A stretch of DNA of 64,000 nucleotides, taken from NCBI GenBank assembly GCA_003534295.1, contig DPDV01000008.1, forward strand, positions 9,460 to 73,459, written 5' to 3'. Within the stretch, counting starts at the first letter, position 1. Each line of letters begins with the position of its first letter. The stretch is from Clostridiales bacterium (GTDB lineage: Bacteria > Bacillota > Clostridia > TANB77 > CAG-508). The translations under genes were made by a program, and so were the position numbers. The notes beneath the pieces are model-generated. The model did no database searches, was not told where the DNA came from, and saw nothing but the letters and a program-made list of their open reading frames with translations. Of this stretch, positions 18,874 through 24,266 are shown piece after piece.

Positions 18874-18912
18874 AAAAAGTTAATTTGATTTATCAAATTA
18901 ACTTTTTAATTT
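18874..18912. terminator. bidirectional intrinsic terminator hairpin
   Basis: AAAAAGTTAATTTGAtttaTCAAATTAACTTTTT flanked by A/T runs. Confidence 0.6.
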
Positions 18913-18958
18913 TTACTATGTTGAAATATGACTAATAATACAATATCGCAAAAAACAA

Positions 18959-18987
18959 TTGACATAATATAAAATGAGTGATATAAT
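18959..18987 (+). promoter_or_regulatory. perfect sigma-A consensus promoter upstream of the leuS cassette
   Basis: TTGACA, a 17-bp spacer, then TATAAT. Confidence 0.6.
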
Positions 18988-19155
18988 ATAAACGCTATTA
19001 GTATAATATTATAATTGTGCTTATGTGAAAATTCACAATGGCAGAACCAAAAATTTTTACAATGAGGTTGAAAATTATAAGCTTGTATTAATATGTACAT
19101 TGAAAATTTAATATGTATGTCGAAAAACATTAAAAACCAAATGGAGGGAAAAATC

Positions 19156-19284
19156 ATGAAGAAAATCCTTTTGCTGGACGCGATCTCTTTCCAGGTTGAT
19201 CCGAACGACGAAATTTGGAGATATGAAAACGTTGCTCAAATCAAGTACGCAGCGAAAAGGGAGAACTCAAGAATCATCGTTTAG
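19156..19284 (+). CDS. 42-codon upstream ORF of the leuS cassette (MKKILLLDAISFQVDPNDEIWRYENVAQIKYAAKRENSRIIV); possible Leu-codon leader peptide or small protein
   Basis: RBS GGAGGG 7 nt upstream. GC-rich codon usage like leuS. Three consecutive Leu codons CTT TTG CTG at codons 5-7. Confidence 0.4.
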   Translation: MKKILLLDAISFQVDPNDEIWRYENVAQIKYAAKRENSRIIV

Positions 19285-19392
19285 CAACCGAGATTTTGTA
19301 TCACATTTGTGTACAGGAAATCCTTTACAAAAACGGTAATAATGAGACTTTAACCTTTAGCTTGAACAATCTTATCTGAATGGAGGTATCTT

Positions 19393-21819
19393 ATGAATAT
19401 CGAGAAAATTAAGCAGATTGAAAAATTTGCAAAAGACAAGTGGGAGAGAGAAAGGCTTTCGGCCTTTGACCATTCCAAGATGGGAAAGAAACTCTATGTC
19501 ATGGATATGTTTTCTTATCCTTCTGGCGCTAAGCTTCATCTGGGCCATTGGTTCAACTTTGGCTTAGTAGATAGCTATGCTCGGTTCAAAAAGATGCAGG
19601 GCTTTAATGTGTTTCAACCCATGGGTTTTGATGCATTCGGACTCCCTGCTGAGAACTATGCAATAAAGACCGGAACTCATCCTTATGACAGCACCATGAA
19701 GAATATCGAAGTTATGCGTGGTCAGCTGAAAGAGATGGGCGGAATGTTCGACTGGTCTAATGAGGTTGTGACATGTGATCCAGAATACTATAAGTGGACC
19801 CAGTGGGTTTTCTGTGAGCTGTACAAAAGAGGTCTTGCTTACAAGAAAGCCGCACCCGCAAATTGGTGCCCGTCCTGCCAGACTGTTCTTGCAAGAGAAC
19901 AGGTAAAGCAGGGCAAGTGCGAAAGATGTGGCTCTGATGTCCACATTAAGAATATGAATCAGTGGTTTCTCAAGATTACTGATTATGCAGAAGAACTGCT
20001 TACCGGTCTTGATGGTCTGGACTGGCCTGAGAAAACGAAGGCTATGCAGAGAAATTGGATTGGTAAGTCTGAAGGTTCCTCTGTAATCTTCAAAAATGAT
20101 GTGGTTGGGGATCTTGAGATCTTCACCACTCGCCCGGATACCGTTTTTGGTGTGACTTATATTGTTATGGCTCCCGAACATGAGCTTGTTAACAAGCTTG
20201 TTACTGCAGAACATGCAGAGGAAGTCGAAGCATATGTGAGAAACACCGAGAGAATGACAGAAATCGAACGTCAGAGTACTTCTCATGAAAAGACAGGTGT
20301 ATTTACTGGCTCATATGCAGAGAATCCTGTGACTGGTAAGAAGGTCCAGATTTGGATTTCTGACTATGTACTGGAAAGCTATGGAACCGGAATCGTTATG
20401 GCAGTTCCTGCACACGATGATCGTGATTACGAGTTTGCTACCAAGTACGGGCTTGAAATTGTACCTGTTATTGATGCATTTGAACCCGATAACCATTGCG
20501 CATATACCGGTGAAGGAAAAATGATTAATTCTGCCTTCCTTGATGGTATGAGTGTTGAAGAGGCTAAGTCGGCAATTGTTGATTATCTGTCTATCAACGG
20601 CGTTGGAGGTAAAAAGGTTACATATCGTTTGAGAGACTGGCTGATTTCTCGTCAAAGATACTGGGGAGCACCTATCCCGATTATCTACTGTGATGATTGC
20701 GGAGAAGTTCTTGTTCCTGATGAACAGCTTCCTGTGCTTCTCCCGTATGATGTGGATTTCAAACCAGATGGCGAATCTCCTTTGGCAAGATGCGAAAGCT
20801 TTGTGAAAACTGTTTGTCCTTGCTGTGGTAAGGAAGCAAGACGCGAAGTGGACACCATGGATACTTTCATGTGTTCCTCTTGGTATATGCTGAGATATCC
20901 TGATGCAAGAAATGACAAGCAGGCATTTGACCCAGATTTTATCAATCAGATGCTTCCTGTTGACAAGTATGTCGGTGGTGCAGAGCATAGTTGTATGCAT
21001 CTTATATATGCAAGATTCGTAACAAAGGTTCTCAGAGATGCTGGTTATCTCAAATTTGATGAACCATTTACCTCTCTGGTTCACCAGGGTACCATTCTTG
21101 GCCCTGATGGTCAGAAGATGAGTAAGTCCAAGGGAAACACTGTTTCTCCGGATGAGTACATTGATAAGTTCGGTTCTGATGTATTCAGAACCTACCTGAT
21201 GTTTGGTTTCAATTACACTGAGGGTGGTCCATGGTCTGAAAGTGGTATTGCATCAATTCAGAAGTATTACGACAGAGTCGACAGGATTTTCGAGAAATAC
21301 TTGAGAATTGAGAAGCTTGAGGATATCTGCGAAGATGAGGAAATTAAGCTTTTGATTGCAGTGAATTCCACTATCGATAAAATTACCAACGGTCTTGATA
21401 CCTTCCAGTTCAACACAACAATCGCGAGAATGATGGAGCTGTTCAGCAACATTAGATCCTATCTTGACACTGGCAGAAATTCTAAGATTCTTATCGATGT
21501 CATGGAAAATGTAACCAAGTTGATGGCTCCGGAAGCACCGCACCTGGCTGAATACTACTGGGAATCTTTAGGACATACATGTAGCATTTTCAAGGAAAAA
21601 TGGCCTGAAGTTGATGAAAAAATCGGAATGTATGCAAATATCAATATTCCGGTTCAGATCAACTCCAAGAATATCACCGTGCTAAATGTCAAGAAGGATA
21701 TCAGCAAGGAAGAAATTCAGAAAATGGCTATGGACTATGTTAATGCAAAGCTCAACGGGTGCGAAATCAAGAAAGTGATTTTCGTTCCTAACAGAATCAT
21801 AAACTTCGTTGTAAAATGA
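19393..21819 (+). CDS. leuS: leucyl-tRNA synthetase, complete; compositionally foreign (G+C clearly higher than flanks)
   Basis: 808 aa. HIGH motif (HLGH), the KMSKS motif, a CP1 editing domain and a Zn Cys cluster. RBS GGAGG. Codons are rich in G/C at the third position. Confidence 0.95.
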   Translation: MNIEKIKQIEKFAKDKWERERLSAFDHSKMGKKLYVMDMFSYPSGAKLHLGHWFNFGLVDSYARFKKMQGFNVFQPMGFDAFGLPAENYAIKTGTHPYDSTMKNIEVMRGQLKEMGGMFDWSNEVVTCDPEYYKWTQWVFCELYKRGLAYKKAAPANWCPSCQTVLAREQVKQGKCERCGSDVHIKNMNQWFLKITDYAEELLTGLDGLDWPEKTKAMQRNWIGKSEGSSVIFKNDVVGDLEIFTTRPDTVFGVTYIVMAPEHELVNKLVTAEHAEEVEAYVRNTERMTEIERQSTSHEKTGVFTGSYAENPVTGKKVQIWISDYVLESYGTGIVMAVPAHDDRDYEFATKYGLEIVPVIDAFEPDNHCAYTGEGKMINSAFLDGMSVEEAKSAIVDYLSINGVGGKKVTYRLRDWLISRQRYWGAPIPIIYCDDCGEVLVPDEQLPVLLPYDVDFKPDGESPLARCESFVKTVCPCCGKEARREVDTMDTFMCSSWYMLRYPDARNDKQAFDPDFINQMLPVDKYVGGAEHSCMHLIYARFVTKVLRDAGYLKFDEPFTSLVHQGTILGPDGQKMSKSKGNTVSPDEYIDKFGSDVFRTYLMFGFNYTEGGPWSESGIASIQKYYDRVDRIFEKYLRIEKLEDICEDEEIKLLIAVNSTIDKITNGLDTFQFNTTIARMMELFSNIRSYLDTGRNSKILIDVMENVTKLMAPEAPHLAEYYWESLGHTCSIFKEKWPEVDEKIGMYANINIPVQINSKNITVLNVKKDISKEEIQKMAMDYVNAKLNGCEIKKVIFVPNRIINFVVK

Positions 21820-21852
21820 GAAAGTGATTTTGTTGTAACAAAACAGCGACTA

Positions 21853-21883
21853 GGGTACCTATTATTTAGGTACCCCAGTTTTT
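21853..21883 (+). terminator. intrinsic terminator after leuS
   Basis: GGGTACCTattatttAGGTACCC followed by CAGTTTTT. Confidence 0.7.
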
Positions 21884-21968
21884 CATATTTTTTAGTAGTA
21901 ACCCCTGTATAATTGGAAAATAATTGAAAAAATAGTAGAAAATAAAATTGCAAAGTTTGATTTTAAAA

Positions 21969-23214
21969 TTATCTTTCCAAATCCCATTCTTTTTCCATTT
22001 CTTCATGTTTTATTTGTTTTTCTGGATCAAGAAAAGTATTAGTTTCTTTTTGAAAATCTCTAATTAAATTATCTTCTTCAGCAATATCAAATTTAACACA
22101 AATCCAATGTATGAATTTATCAATAGTTTCGTAGAATTTATCAATTATTTTGTGTAATTTACTATTTTCTTTTTCTAATTTACTAACTTTATATTTGTAT
22201 TCATACTCTAAATTATAAGATTTTTCTTGATATTCCTTTTCAAGTTCTTTTTTTCTGTTATCATATTTTAAATCAAGAGTATTATTTTTATTTTGATATT
22301 CGTGTTTTATTTCTTTTACAGTATTGTGTAATTTCTTGTTATCTGCAATGATTTTATCTCGTTCTTTTTGATATTTTACAGCCTCATCAACAATTTTGGA
22401 TTGTTTTGATATTTCTTTATGCAATGATAAATTACATTATATAATTCTTTAATTAAATCATCTTTAGGTTTTATGATTTCTTTTAGTATTTTTTCATCTC
22501 TTTTTGTTGAAAACTTACTAATTTCATTTATATTTGGAACTTCTGGTATTTCTAGTTTAATTTCTTTTAGAACTTTCTTAGTATTTTCATAATTTGTAAT
22601 TTTCTTATATTCTTCAACTGTATAATGTTTTCTGTCAGTATCTTCTACAAACATACCGCTTTCTAAATTAAAACCCTTTGATTTTATATGATTAAAGTAG
22701 GCATCCTGTAATTTTCTATAACTGTCTTGACCTTTCCAAAAATCTCTTGCACAAATTTTATCAATGTCGTTTCCATCTTTGTCTTTGGTATGAACAACAG
22801 GAACAAACATTAAGTGCATATGTGGTACACCTTCATCTAAATGTACCACTGCTGATATTATATTTTTTCTCCTAGATTCTTATAACTGCATATAAATTTA
22901 TAACATTCATCAAAATATCTTTTGGTCTCTTTTTCTCCAATTTTATCAAAGAATGCTTGGTCAGATGTAAATATCATTTGACACATTATTATACTATTAC
23001 TCCTAAGATGACCTTGCACATTATTTTCTTTTAAATATTTATCAAATTCTTTGGCGTATGTTAGTCCATTTTTTTTAATGTAATAATTTAAGTGTGTTTT
23101 TGTAGGAGCAATATCTTTATTAGTATGATTTTTTGCTTTTCTATCATTATGAGTTCCTTTTCCATTTACTTCTGCTCGTGTTAATTTTTCATTTCTTACA
23201 ATAACATGACTCAT
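21969..23214 (-). pseudogene. mob: MobV-family relaxase (Mob/Pre plasmid recombination enzyme) split across three reading frames
   Basis: N-terminus MSHVIVRNEK... resembles MobM. The HxDE..PHxH motif VHLDEGVPHMHLMFVP sits in the second frame. The C-terminal coiled coil is in the third frame. The first junction is restored by A5 to A6 (NLGEKNIISAVVHLDE). Confidence 0.75.
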
Positions 23215-23261
23215 ATCTCCTTGCCCCTCCTTCTTTGCTCGAGATATTGTTTCAATGTCTA

Positions 23262-23295
23262 ACACACTAGACAAACAAAGTTTGTCTGTGTGGCA
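23262..23295. promoter_or_regulatory. candidate oriT: inverted repeat followed by GTGTGG just upstream of mob
   Basis: AGACAAACaaagTTTGTCT-GTGTGG. MobV oriTs have an IR next to a GTGTG-type nick region. Confidence 0.35.
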
Positions 23296-24190
23296 GGGTT
23301 AGGCAATCCCACACCCCAAAACCTAAAATTTCTTAATTGCATTTTAGATTTTTCATAAAAATTTGCTTATTGCAATTTTTATGAATGTGAGCAAAAAAAT
23401 AAATTTTTTACTCACAACCCAAAAGCATAAGCGCTTTTTGGCATTTACTTTAGCAACTACTAAGCAGAAACTAGAGGAAGAGAGCTAAAGTGAATTAGGT
23501 GTAATAATCCCATTGTTACAAATAGAATTATTACGCCTATATAAGTAGAAACCGTCGGTCGTTCGCCTCGTTTCATAGGTAGTCTAGTAAGTAGCTTTGC
23601 TACTATAATTGTTGATACTACTAAAGTATCTTTGTTCATACTTGTCCAAACTTTTTACAATTATAAATCCACACCAAAATATGCCACCGAATACTCTTTT
23701 ATTATTGTGAGTCTGTGTTCTAAAATCTCACTCACTCACCTTGTATAATTAGACTGCTTATACAAATACGAATGAACTTTATAGCATCGGCTCATTACAC
23801 CTATCACTTTTTAAGAGTTTGTGGCAATTCTCTTTTAAACATAAAAAACTACCTGTAGCTTAAAAACTACAAGTAGTCTATGTTTATTCTATTTAATTAG
23901 CCATCACAATCGATTTAAGGCAATTTATTGTGAGGATAGAGTAATTTTTTACGATAAAATTTTATAAAAAATTTTCAAAATCTATTTATCAATGGTAGAT
24001 TATCTGTTATAATAGTTCATAAATAACATCTAACCAATATCTAACCAAAACATTAAAAAATATGTTATTTTATAAATATTGTTTAATAGTAAGTTAGATA
24101 AATTAGTATGGGAAAAATGTTTGAGATAAAGCTATTTTAAGAAGTATTATATAATAATAAATAACAAAATATATAAAACACTTATAAAGG

Positions 24191-24266
24191 CTCTGACTCC
24201 GACATTCCTGTGTTCGAATCACAGTACCCCAACCACAAAGCAACTAGTTAATTTGACTAGTTGCTT
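24191..24266. repeat. attR: second copy of the 76-bp direct repeat (partial tRNA-Gln 3' half plus hairpin)
   Basis: Identical to 14475-14550. Confidence 0.85.

Follow-up and report, generated by a model that had tools for sequence, protein, structure and literature searches.

Leucyl-tRNA synthetase (LeuRS) has been validated as a target of antibacterial and antifungal agents, and agrocin 84 with its immunity enzyme AgnB2 is, to our knowledge, the only natural LeuRS inhibitor/immunity pair known. AgnB2 (pAgK84, Agrobacterium/Rhizobium K84) is a complete canonical LeuRS encoded on a mobile element beside LeuRS-inhibitor genes. It goes on working when the housekeeping LeuRS is inhibited. Changes near the synthetic site and in tRNA-contacting elements underlie this resistance, with adenylate binding kept, and AgnB2 withstands TM84 because inhibitor binding no longer depends on tRNA (PMC5059758). 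In the mupirocin-type isoleucyl-tRNA synthetases (IleRS), a divergent second class I synthetase gives resistance (MupM in the producer; MupA, MupB and IleRS2 in targets), and the resistance gene is found both in the producer's cluster and alone on mobile DNA in non-producers (PMC5388404; PMC9437257). LeuRS is among the least often duplicated and most stable synthetase families (PMC5388404), and the only duplicates of unclear role that reviews list for it are the Sulfolobaceae LeuRS-I and the haloarchaeal LeuRS2 (PMC9437257). Here we describe a LeuRS gene within 64,000 nt of Clostridiales bacterium DNA (assembly GCA_003534295.1, contig DPDV01000008.1, positions 9,460–73,459 of the forward strand); this whole stretch is called the window, and coordinates count from its first letter. 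The gene (protein accession HCF65049.1) lies on a chromosomal island that is a deletion derivative of an element intact elsewhere. About 4.3 kb with three enzyme genes has been lost, and LeuRS is the only intact gene of a foreign four-gene block, accompanied on its 5' side by an intact companion gene for a PNP_UDP_1 protein (hereafter PNP). We propose that it may be an orphaned immunity gene.

The LeuRS gene and its immediate surroundings comprise the following features. Loci from other public assemblies are given as L numbers, L102 being a contig with the intact element.

18868..18913, plus strand: A/T-only inverted repeat after the PNP gene, possible weak terminator, read by eye
18959..18987, plus strand: operon promoter TTGACA-17-TATAAT with TG extension, 12/12 match
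18994..19155, plus strand: operon 5' leader, from an alignment (A1) of 8 loci, kept in all
19156..19252, plus strand: radical SAM gene remnant, first 32 codons (97 nt); MKKILLLDAISFQVDPNDEIWRYENVAQIKYA equals the N-terminus of the L102 radical SAM protein
19253..19379, plus strand: GFO_IDH_MocA gene remnant, last 42 codons (127 nt); its end, EKGELKNHRLATEILYHICVQEILYKNGNNETLTFSLNNLI and the stop, aligns to the C-terminus of the L102 GFO protein
19393..21819, plus strand: intact LeuRS open reading frame (ORF), 808 aa; ribosome-binding site GGAGG at 19382–19386
Within LeuRS, plus strand: clade-specific codons D38 (19504–06), R168 (19894–96), M489, M493, S533 (20989–91) and V546
21849..21885, plus strand: intrinsic terminator, 13-bp G+C-containing stem (21849–21879) and T-run; also read on the minus strand

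A first-pass annotation, made from the letters alone, had recognized a full-length LeuRS with HIGH and KMSKS motifs and an editing domain, and the domain searches bear this out. The product matches TIGR00396 (leuS_bact) over residues 6–808 with 947 bits against a cut-off of 548, and PF00133, PF13603 and PF08264 mark its catalytic, LeuRS editing and anticodon-binding domains. The motifs HLGH (49–52), KMSKS (575–579), TTRPDT (245–250) and HDDRD (341–345) are in place, the catalytic and editing motifs being the same as in housekeeping relatives, and the translation contains two Cys clusters.

The gene is compositionally foreign, even relative to its own island, and the G+C contrast that had been noticed by eye was confirmed in sliding windows. 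In 1-kb windows over 19001–22000 the G+C content is 0.39, 0.44 and 0.37, against 0.23–0.26 on both sides; in 150-nt windows it rises at ~19125–19160 and falls at ~21830–21900. The G+C of the LeuRS gene is 0.423 and that of its third codon positions (GC3) 0.430, ~15 standard deviations over the mean of 15 non-island genes, whereas GC3 is 0.113–0.195 in the other window genes examined, the rest of the island included. The high-G+C block begins at 19156, ~170 nt 3' of the promoter, which itself lies in AT-rich DNA. L102 displays the same step: GC3 is 0.35–0.48 in the four genes from radical SAM to LeuRS and 0.12–0.16 in the backbone genes for PNP, DUF6076 and MobV. The unit of nested acquisition is thus the four-gene block from radical SAM to LeuRS; the nested acquisition claimed earlier stands in substance, but its unit was not a leuS cassette. 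The GC3 of 0.43 is unameliorated and the same as in the intact element, which suggests that LeuRS arrived recently. In L091, L094 and L096, the radical SAM-to-LeuRS genes are stepwise nearer to host composition.

The closest relatives of the window LeuRS are not native leuS genes; each of them ends a conserved operon encoding a PNP_UDP_1 protein (250 aa), a B12-binding radical SAM protein (~470 aa), a PF00282 pyridoxal phosphate (PLP)-dependent decarboxylase (555 aa), a GFO_IDH_MocA oxidoreductase (~477 aa) and LeuRS (808 aa). In the intact element the order is DUF6076, PNP, the block of B12 radical SAM, PLP decarboxylase, GFO oxidoreductase and LeuRS, then MobV. The relatives, with LeuRS identity to the window, are:

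L102–L105: 97%; in an element with an intact 412-aa MobV, DUF6076 and serine recombinases
L106–L108: 87%; chromosomal, with PNP 3' of LeuRS
L091, L092: 83%; operon
L094, L095: 76%; operon
L114: 81%, partial LeuRS at a contig end (residues 3–157); operon

PNP is syntenic in L091, L094 and L102 and lies 3' of LeuRS in L106. The chromosomal operon copy of L094 has a tRNA-Leu(UAG) gene (3759–3842) ~220 nt 5' of PNP, which could be an integration site or a functional tie to LeuRS.

DNA alignment with L102 yields two blocks, window 17638–19252 corresponding to L102 3901–5515 and window 19251–23214 to L102 9859–13820; it follows that 4,343 bp are absent from the window. The deletion junction falls between 19252 and 19253, with AG microhomology, and comparison with L091 gives the same deletion pattern. 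Across the junction, a 42-codon ORF (19156–19284) is the radical SAM start run out of frame into the GFO end, and the stop of the GFO remnant (19377–19379) lies 13 nt 5' of the LeuRS start. A Leu-rich leader peptide (MKKILLLD...) was considered for this region and rejected, as this peptide is simply the start of the deleted radical SAM protein. LeuRS adjoins the operon promoter and leader only because the 4.3-kb deletion took out three genes; if it is transcribed at all, it is transcribed from these ancestral operon signals. The earlier description of a self-contained cassette with its own promoter is therefore not supported. The backbone of L102 has serine recombinases and a relaxase only 46–59% identical to that of the window, so the cargo has moved between backbones.

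The promoter, of the extended sigma-70 type, had been called a perfect TTGACA-17-TATAAT sequence, and it is indeed the sole 12/12 match in the 5.5 kb scanned. TTGACA occurs at the homologous place in 6/7 relatives and TGATATAAT or a near match in 5/7, both hexamers being degraded in L094. Promoter and leader stand 5' of the radical SAM gene in 6 relatives; in L096, the same promoter and leader are fused straight to LeuRS, without any enzyme genes. The leader (~165 nt) is retained at loci that share only 76–97% LeuRS identity (L091, L094, L096 at 9820–10000, L102 and L106). It contains the palindrome TGTGAAAATTCACA at 19024–19037, which co-varies in L096 as TGCGGAATTTCGCA, and a conserved block at 19066–19122; the almost invariant leader block reads GTATTAATATG.AC.TTGAAAA. 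No Rfam family was found in 18800–19500 at E ≤ 10, and RNAalifold gave −4.9 kcal/mol for the leader, with a small hairpin and modest covariation, a weak fold signal. On these two results, we make no claim of a riboswitch or RNA element. The leader could be an operator or a cis-regulatory RNA of a new type.

As first noted, the LeuRS gene has no T-box: RF00230 is without a match in the whole window at gathering thresholds and in 18800–19500 at E ≤ 10, and no T-box was found at L091, L094 and L096. The window's cysteinyl-tRNA synthetase gene, cysS (7389–8852, minus strand), has none either, so the missing T-box is weak evidence in this lineage. Hairpin terminators had been proposed on both sides of the gene. 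The 3' one, with its 13-bp stem, stands; the 5' one is an A/T-only repeat that is conserved in L102 but was not called by the terminator scan.

The island itself is bounded and populated as follows.

14445..14519, plus strand: tRNA-Gln(CUG), integration target (ARAGORN, Rfam tRNA)
14475..14550, no strand: attL, a 76-bp perfect direct repeat identical to 24191–24266, made of the 3' 45 nt of tRNA-Gln and 31 nt more
14646..15820, minus strand: tyrosine integrase pseudogene, ORFs 14646–15374 and 15488–15820, with Phage_integrase and the SAM-like N-terminal domain on separate ORFs
15908..16120, minus strand: excisionase-type HTH_17 protein, 70 aa (PF12728, TIGR01764)
16880..18025, plus strand: DUF6076 protein, element backbone beside the cargo (PF19553)
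18115..18867, plus strand: PNP_UDP_1 nucleoside phosphorylase/nucleosidase, 250 aa, the companion gene (PF01048)
21969..23274, minus strand: MobV relaxase pseudogene in three reading frames, Pfam Mob_Pre on two fragments
24191..24266, no strand: attR, the second 76-bp repeat, making the island 14551–24266 (9,716 bp)

In tblastn alignment with an intact 406-aa relative, the integrase gene is interrupted by an in-frame stop and shifts frame once; the relaxase gene, aligned in the same way with the intact 412-aa MobV of L102, shifts frame twice. The island is a decayed integrative mobilizable element (IME) in which the integrase and relaxase genes are present but disrupted, and on account of this decay it is now unable to move by itself. 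The DUF6076 gene has the same position in L102, its 3' part being 87% identical in DNA. PNP has the 5'-methylthioadenosine phosphorylase 1jds as its best solved relative, and its dN/dS against L102 is 0.12.

Other settings for the cargo were considered and rejected. Phage or plasmid carriage was dismissed since viral contigs hold no relative and the best plasmid LeuRS is 47% identical; plasmid decarboxylases are ≤30% identical and lie in unrelated contexts. PHROGs gave no match for the cargo proteins. A defence-system reading, suggested by the PNP domain and by locus L116, which adjoins AbiE and a type I restriction gene, was given up, as the PADLOC anti-phage models matched none of PNP, DUF6076, radical SAM, decarboxylase and GFO.

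We compared 35 LeuRS proteins of the clade that contains the window enzyme with 80 other Clostridia LeuRS proteins. The fixed clade differences are E38D, N168R, L188M, L489M, V493M, A533S and A546V. All 35 clade members have R168 and none of the 80 others does; these 80 have N168, as do the aligned enzymes of T. thermophilus and N. gonorrhoeae (PDB 6q89). S533 replaces an Ala between the histidines equivalent to T. thermophilus H541 and H545, and M493 comes next after the residue equivalent to F501; we take H541, H545 and F501 to line the leucine pocket. In the E. coli enzyme, Asn168 is part of the strongly conserved Thr164–Val171 motif of the ZN domain; together with Glu169 and Gln190, it fixes the acceptor end of the tRNA in the synthetic site (PMC13454842). 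N168R is our candidate determinant of the putative resistance, with A533S, E38D, L489M, V493M and A546V as other fixed changes that may be considered.

R168 enzymes also occur as second copies. Three genomes (L096, L109 and L128) hold tandem LeuRS pairs, in each case with an N168 copy of 814–823 aa upstream and an R168 copy of 805–809 aa downstream. The R168 copy of L096 is 81% identical to the window LeuRS and is the only tandem copy inside the defined clade; those of L109 and L128 (65–66%) are outliers that have R168 and a number of the other clade residues. The longer partner is one of a large family of LeuRS proteins of 811–820 aa, which in the relative L111 has an ordinary housekeeping context. 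A sister sequence, P0041 (L129), has most clade changes but N168, and its context looks housekeeping. The tandem pairs (L096 480–12430, L109 8630–19234 and L128 1–12418) adjoin another gene cluster. A methyltransferase and hyp385 are found there in 3/3 cases, an S66 (MccF-like) peptidase in 2/3 and a radical SAM protein in 2/3; an AsnA-like class II synthetase paralogue and a PNP occur in L096 and L109, an SDR in L096 and L128, a zeta-toxin-like kinase solely in L128 and a GAPDH-like gene solely in L109. This cluster looks like another uncharacterised LeuRS-linked pathway.

The LeuRS gene has been kept intact. Its dN/dS against L102 is 0.14, and the ORF is unbroken in 19/19 island copies compared. 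Among loci sampled independently of LeuRS, the gene varies within the species by 4 synonymous and 1 non-synonymous codon changes; indel polymorphism is seen in the integrase, the relaxase and the spacer. Overall, the island varies very little within the species. The exact protein occurs in 2,526 blocks of public assemblies, and 24/24 long contigs read have the same context. One island-bearing record is named human gut metagenome.

We give an even chance to the reading that the window LeuRS is an orphaned immunity LeuRS, an extra copy guarding against a LeuRS-targeting metabolite. The operon arrived as cargo of a MobV-type IME of AT-rich gut Clostridia, and the element integrated at the tRNA-Gln 3' end in this species. 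The 4.3-kb internal deletion then dropped the three enzyme genes and placed LeuRS under the operon's strong promoter and leader, and decay of integrase and relaxase made the island immobile. Integration, deletion and decay are shown by the DNA; what LeuRS does in the producer and in this species we infer. The three enzymes, aided by the PNP-like protein, would make a small molecule acting on LeuRS, perhaps a leucine or leucyl-adenylate mimic or a leucine antimetabolite, and the PNP-like enzyme could clear 5'-deoxyadenosine, methylthioadenosine (MTA) or S-adenosylhomocysteine (SAH) by-products of SAM enzymes. The R168 LeuRS of the intact operon would be the producer's self-protection, and the position of N168R points to a changed handling of the tRNA 3' end. 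This species would keep an inhibitor-insensitive second LeuRS that charges tRNA-Leu when neighbours produce the compound. The first-pass annotation had likewise suggested a resistance or immunity determinant; the operon context on mobilizable elements and the R168 second copies lend it real support, the function being a putative one.

Several observations weigh against an immunity function. No characterised close relative of any operon enzyme was found, the matches being at superfamily level only, and the AgnB2 determinants (KQSKS, T42 and A102) are not specifically present. The significance given to N168R is drawn from the E. coli structure. An aminoacyl-tRNA synthetase in a biosynthetic cluster can serve biosynthesis instead of resistance. 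The low dN/dS of LeuRS built up partly before the deletion. Finally, a second leuS of this species was not found among the listed homologues of the island LeuRS and of the native-type LeuRS823 or among the cluster memberships; dispensability of the gene is read from one empty-site contig; and the island is present in 46/48 long contigs, two flanking genes combined, as would be expected of an essential gene or, equally, of a strongly beneficial one.

The last three points bear directly on xenologous replacement, already raised by the first-pass annotation, in which the island LeuRS is now the sole housekeeping LeuRS and the native leuS was lost, for example made useless by the producer's own inhibitor. 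We regard replacement as a serious rival, if a rather unlikely one. In its favour, besides the 46/48 contigs and the 2,526 assembly blocks with the exact protein, the LeuRS ORF is unbroken and shows purifying selection next to decaying mobility genes, the promoter is strong and constitutive-looking, and no native leuS candidate of like abundance appeared among the matches listed in the two protein searches. The last of these is weak evidence, because each search shows the best 120 of >8,000 matches. The cluster memberships likewise held no LeuRS cluster with the host's abundance or an HCF65xxx accession, and a LeuRS scan of a genome collection, which was dominated by the universal HDDRDYEF motif and did not cover the host genome, returned only 46–53% identical relatives. 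One candidate for the host's native gene, P0107, was rejected, being the housekeeping leuS of another, rarer species.

Replacement is disfavoured by the empty site. Contigs sampled via the flanking enolase gene comprised ~22 with the island, one precise empty site (L098) and one variant element (L100), and those sampled via the other flank (YlmH) had the island in 24/24 cases. L098, which comes from SAMEA3449224, has a single 76-bp copy, an intact tRNA-Gln and no Ns, and its flanks are 100% identical to the window. An assembly artefact is unlikely at this site, because the same assembly series places the island correctly in the long scaffolds L099 and L125. The unameliorated GC3, identical to that of the intact element, and the coexistence of R168 with N168 LeuRS in three other genomes also speak against replacement.

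The variant L100 was not counted as a second island-free strain, since its elements are nested or in tandem, which makes it ambiguous. It has a composite element (11372–21266) at the same attachment site, whose relaxase end matches the window from 21961 on at 96.6% identity; after this end come unrelated cargo, an intact 406-aa integrase and a 3' fragment of a different tRNA, and L100 also has an inverted 43-bp copy of window 23775–23817. With regard to assembly, in 1,636 of the 2,526 blocks the longest LeuRS-carrying contig is <10 kb, a length close to that of the island. Assemblies probably often stop at the island borders because of the 76-bp repeats, a point to be weighed when empty-site contigs are judged.

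It is improbable, in our view, that the gene is a leftover or former biosynthetic helper, once supplying Leu-tRNA or leucyl-adenylate and now a neutral passenger yet to decay. VlmL, a seryl-tRNA synthetase, is such a helper in valanimycin biosynthesis. Synthetase paralogues with non-translational roles exist, LeuRS-I and LeuRS2 included (PMC9437257); a tRNA-Leu gene adjoins the operon in L094, and the very low island diversity fits a recent event. Nevertheless, the 2.4-kb ORF is intact in every copy whereas the shorter integrase and relaxase genes are disabled and carry further indel polymorphisms. The catalytic and editing motifs are all canonical, the L096 clade LeuRS keeps the same promoter and leader without enzyme genes, and no tRNA-dependent transferase is present in the operon. 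An ordinary native leuS, G+C-rich through amino-acid composition or high expression, is excluded: conserved, highly expressed genes of AT-rich genomes often are G+C-richer, as are eno and the GGGtGRT gene here (G+C 0.32–0.35), but the GC3 of these two is only 0.135–0.147, and the LeuRS gene lies within a 9.7-kb att-flanked island absent from L098, has a 97% identical counterpart on a different element in other assemblies and directly follows remnants of two other enzyme genes.

Returning to the reading of LeuRS as an orphaned immunity enzyme, distant homologues of the operon decarboxylase (41–46% identity) recur beside class I synthetases. In L115 (1–3752) and L116 (9112–14068), a nucleotidyltransferase-like protein and a decarboxylase (46% identity) are followed by LeuRS, and L118 (45–5098) has IleRS2, the nucleotidyltransferase-like protein and the decarboxylase. 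In L117 (9189–13220), genes for a RimL-type GNAT and a sulfotransferase come after the decarboxylase gene. The recurrent pair consists of a 268–285-aa Pol-beta-like nucleotidyltransferase-like protein, with no Pfam family over threshold and weak CD-NTase similarity, and a 560-aa PLP decarboxylase; in L116 its surroundings are a defence island that includes HsdR and AbiEi/AbiEii. We tentatively extend the reading as follows, while thinking it somewhat more probable that some part of the extension fails. The gut-Clostridia operon would make a new LeuRS-directed product, with the R168 LeuRS as its immunity enzyme and N168R as the key change; an orphan copy would be nearly fixed in a prevalent non-producer; and the decarboxylase family, joined in other lineages by the nucleotidyltransferase-like protein, would mark aminoacyl-adenylate-mimic or amino-acid-antimetabolite pathways paired with LeuRS, IleRS or GNAT immunity genes.

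Beyond the island lie enolase and glycolytic genes, and the remaining window is core chromosome, with IF-2, NusA, LepA, DnaE, AddA, a PBP, CysRS, FtsH and 6S RNA. The 6S RNA (37471–37654, minus strand) matches Rfam RF00013 with 97.9 bits. Two paralogous DUF6583 proteins of 532 and 604 aa are encoded at 46092–47690 and 48478–50292 on the minus strand, with a 260-aa ORF between them.

If the immunity reading is true, the locus leads, by way of its resistance gene, to a small-molecule pathway of the human gut microbiota that is still uncharacterised, and the compound of that pathway shapes gut populations, a prevalent commensal having kept only the immunity gene. The intact operon in L102 and L091, the candidate substitution N168R and the natural N168/R168 tandem pairs provide experimental handles. 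Should replacement be true instead, the locus would record a clean, recent and datable displacement of an essential translation gene via a mobile element.

How, then, does the locus compare with known systems? It is not of the AgnB2 lineage, the two enzymes being 39.8% identical. Neither has a leucine-specific domain, which all Clostridia relatives of the window enzyme also lack. The position of N168R at the tRNA 3' end is reminiscent of the tRNA-linked resistance of AgnB2, but the AgnB2 substitutions themselves are not common to the window LeuRS. The AgnB2 determinants are Q573 (KQSKS), T42, a Thr where a conserved Pro otherwise precedes HIGH, and A102, an Ala replacing Asn104/105; in the window enzyme KMSKS is intact, and its Ser41 is common to all 80 housekeeping Clostridia LeuRS proteins. 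For A102 (E. coli N104) the equivalent column is unmapped, and inspection of residues 76–100 gave no clade-specific change. AgnB2-type determinants were accordingly rejected as the basis here, not being specific to the R168 clade. The agn genes share nothing with the linked B12 radical SAM, PLP decarboxylase, GFO oxidoreductase and PNP genes, and at the present locus, unlike that of AgnB2, the inhibitor is hypothetical and the biosynthetic genes are deleted.

With respect to mupirocin, the window would match the case of a resistance gene without its cluster, but the amino-acid specificity differs, and the NCBIfam MupA and MupB models score the window LeuRS at 103 and 96 bits against a cut-off of 1900. 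Orphan bacteriocin or toxin immunity genes are likewise retained with their original promoter after production genes are lost, and spread in non-producers; they usually encode small dedicated proteins, whereas the gene here is for a complete paralogue of an essential enzyme, with a toxin that is hypothetical. MobV IMEs at Firmicutes tRNA genes have the same layout as the island, with a tyrosine integrase and excisionase at one end, MobV at the other, cargo between and the tRNA 3' end duplicated, but both mobility genes are pseudogenes here. The native T-box leuS genes of Firmicutes encode the same family with the same domain order (57–60% identity of the window enzyme to Clostridium LeuRS among the matches listed); by contrast, the window gene has an operon-shared conserved leader in place of a T-box, and foreign codon usage. 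The literature yielded no described synthetase-inhibitor cluster with linked genes related to these. A resistant synthetase paralogue tied to an inhibitor pathway on mobile DNA is a known kind of system, represented by AgnB2, MupM and MupA; what is new here is to find it orphaned and close to fixation in a prevalent gut commensal.

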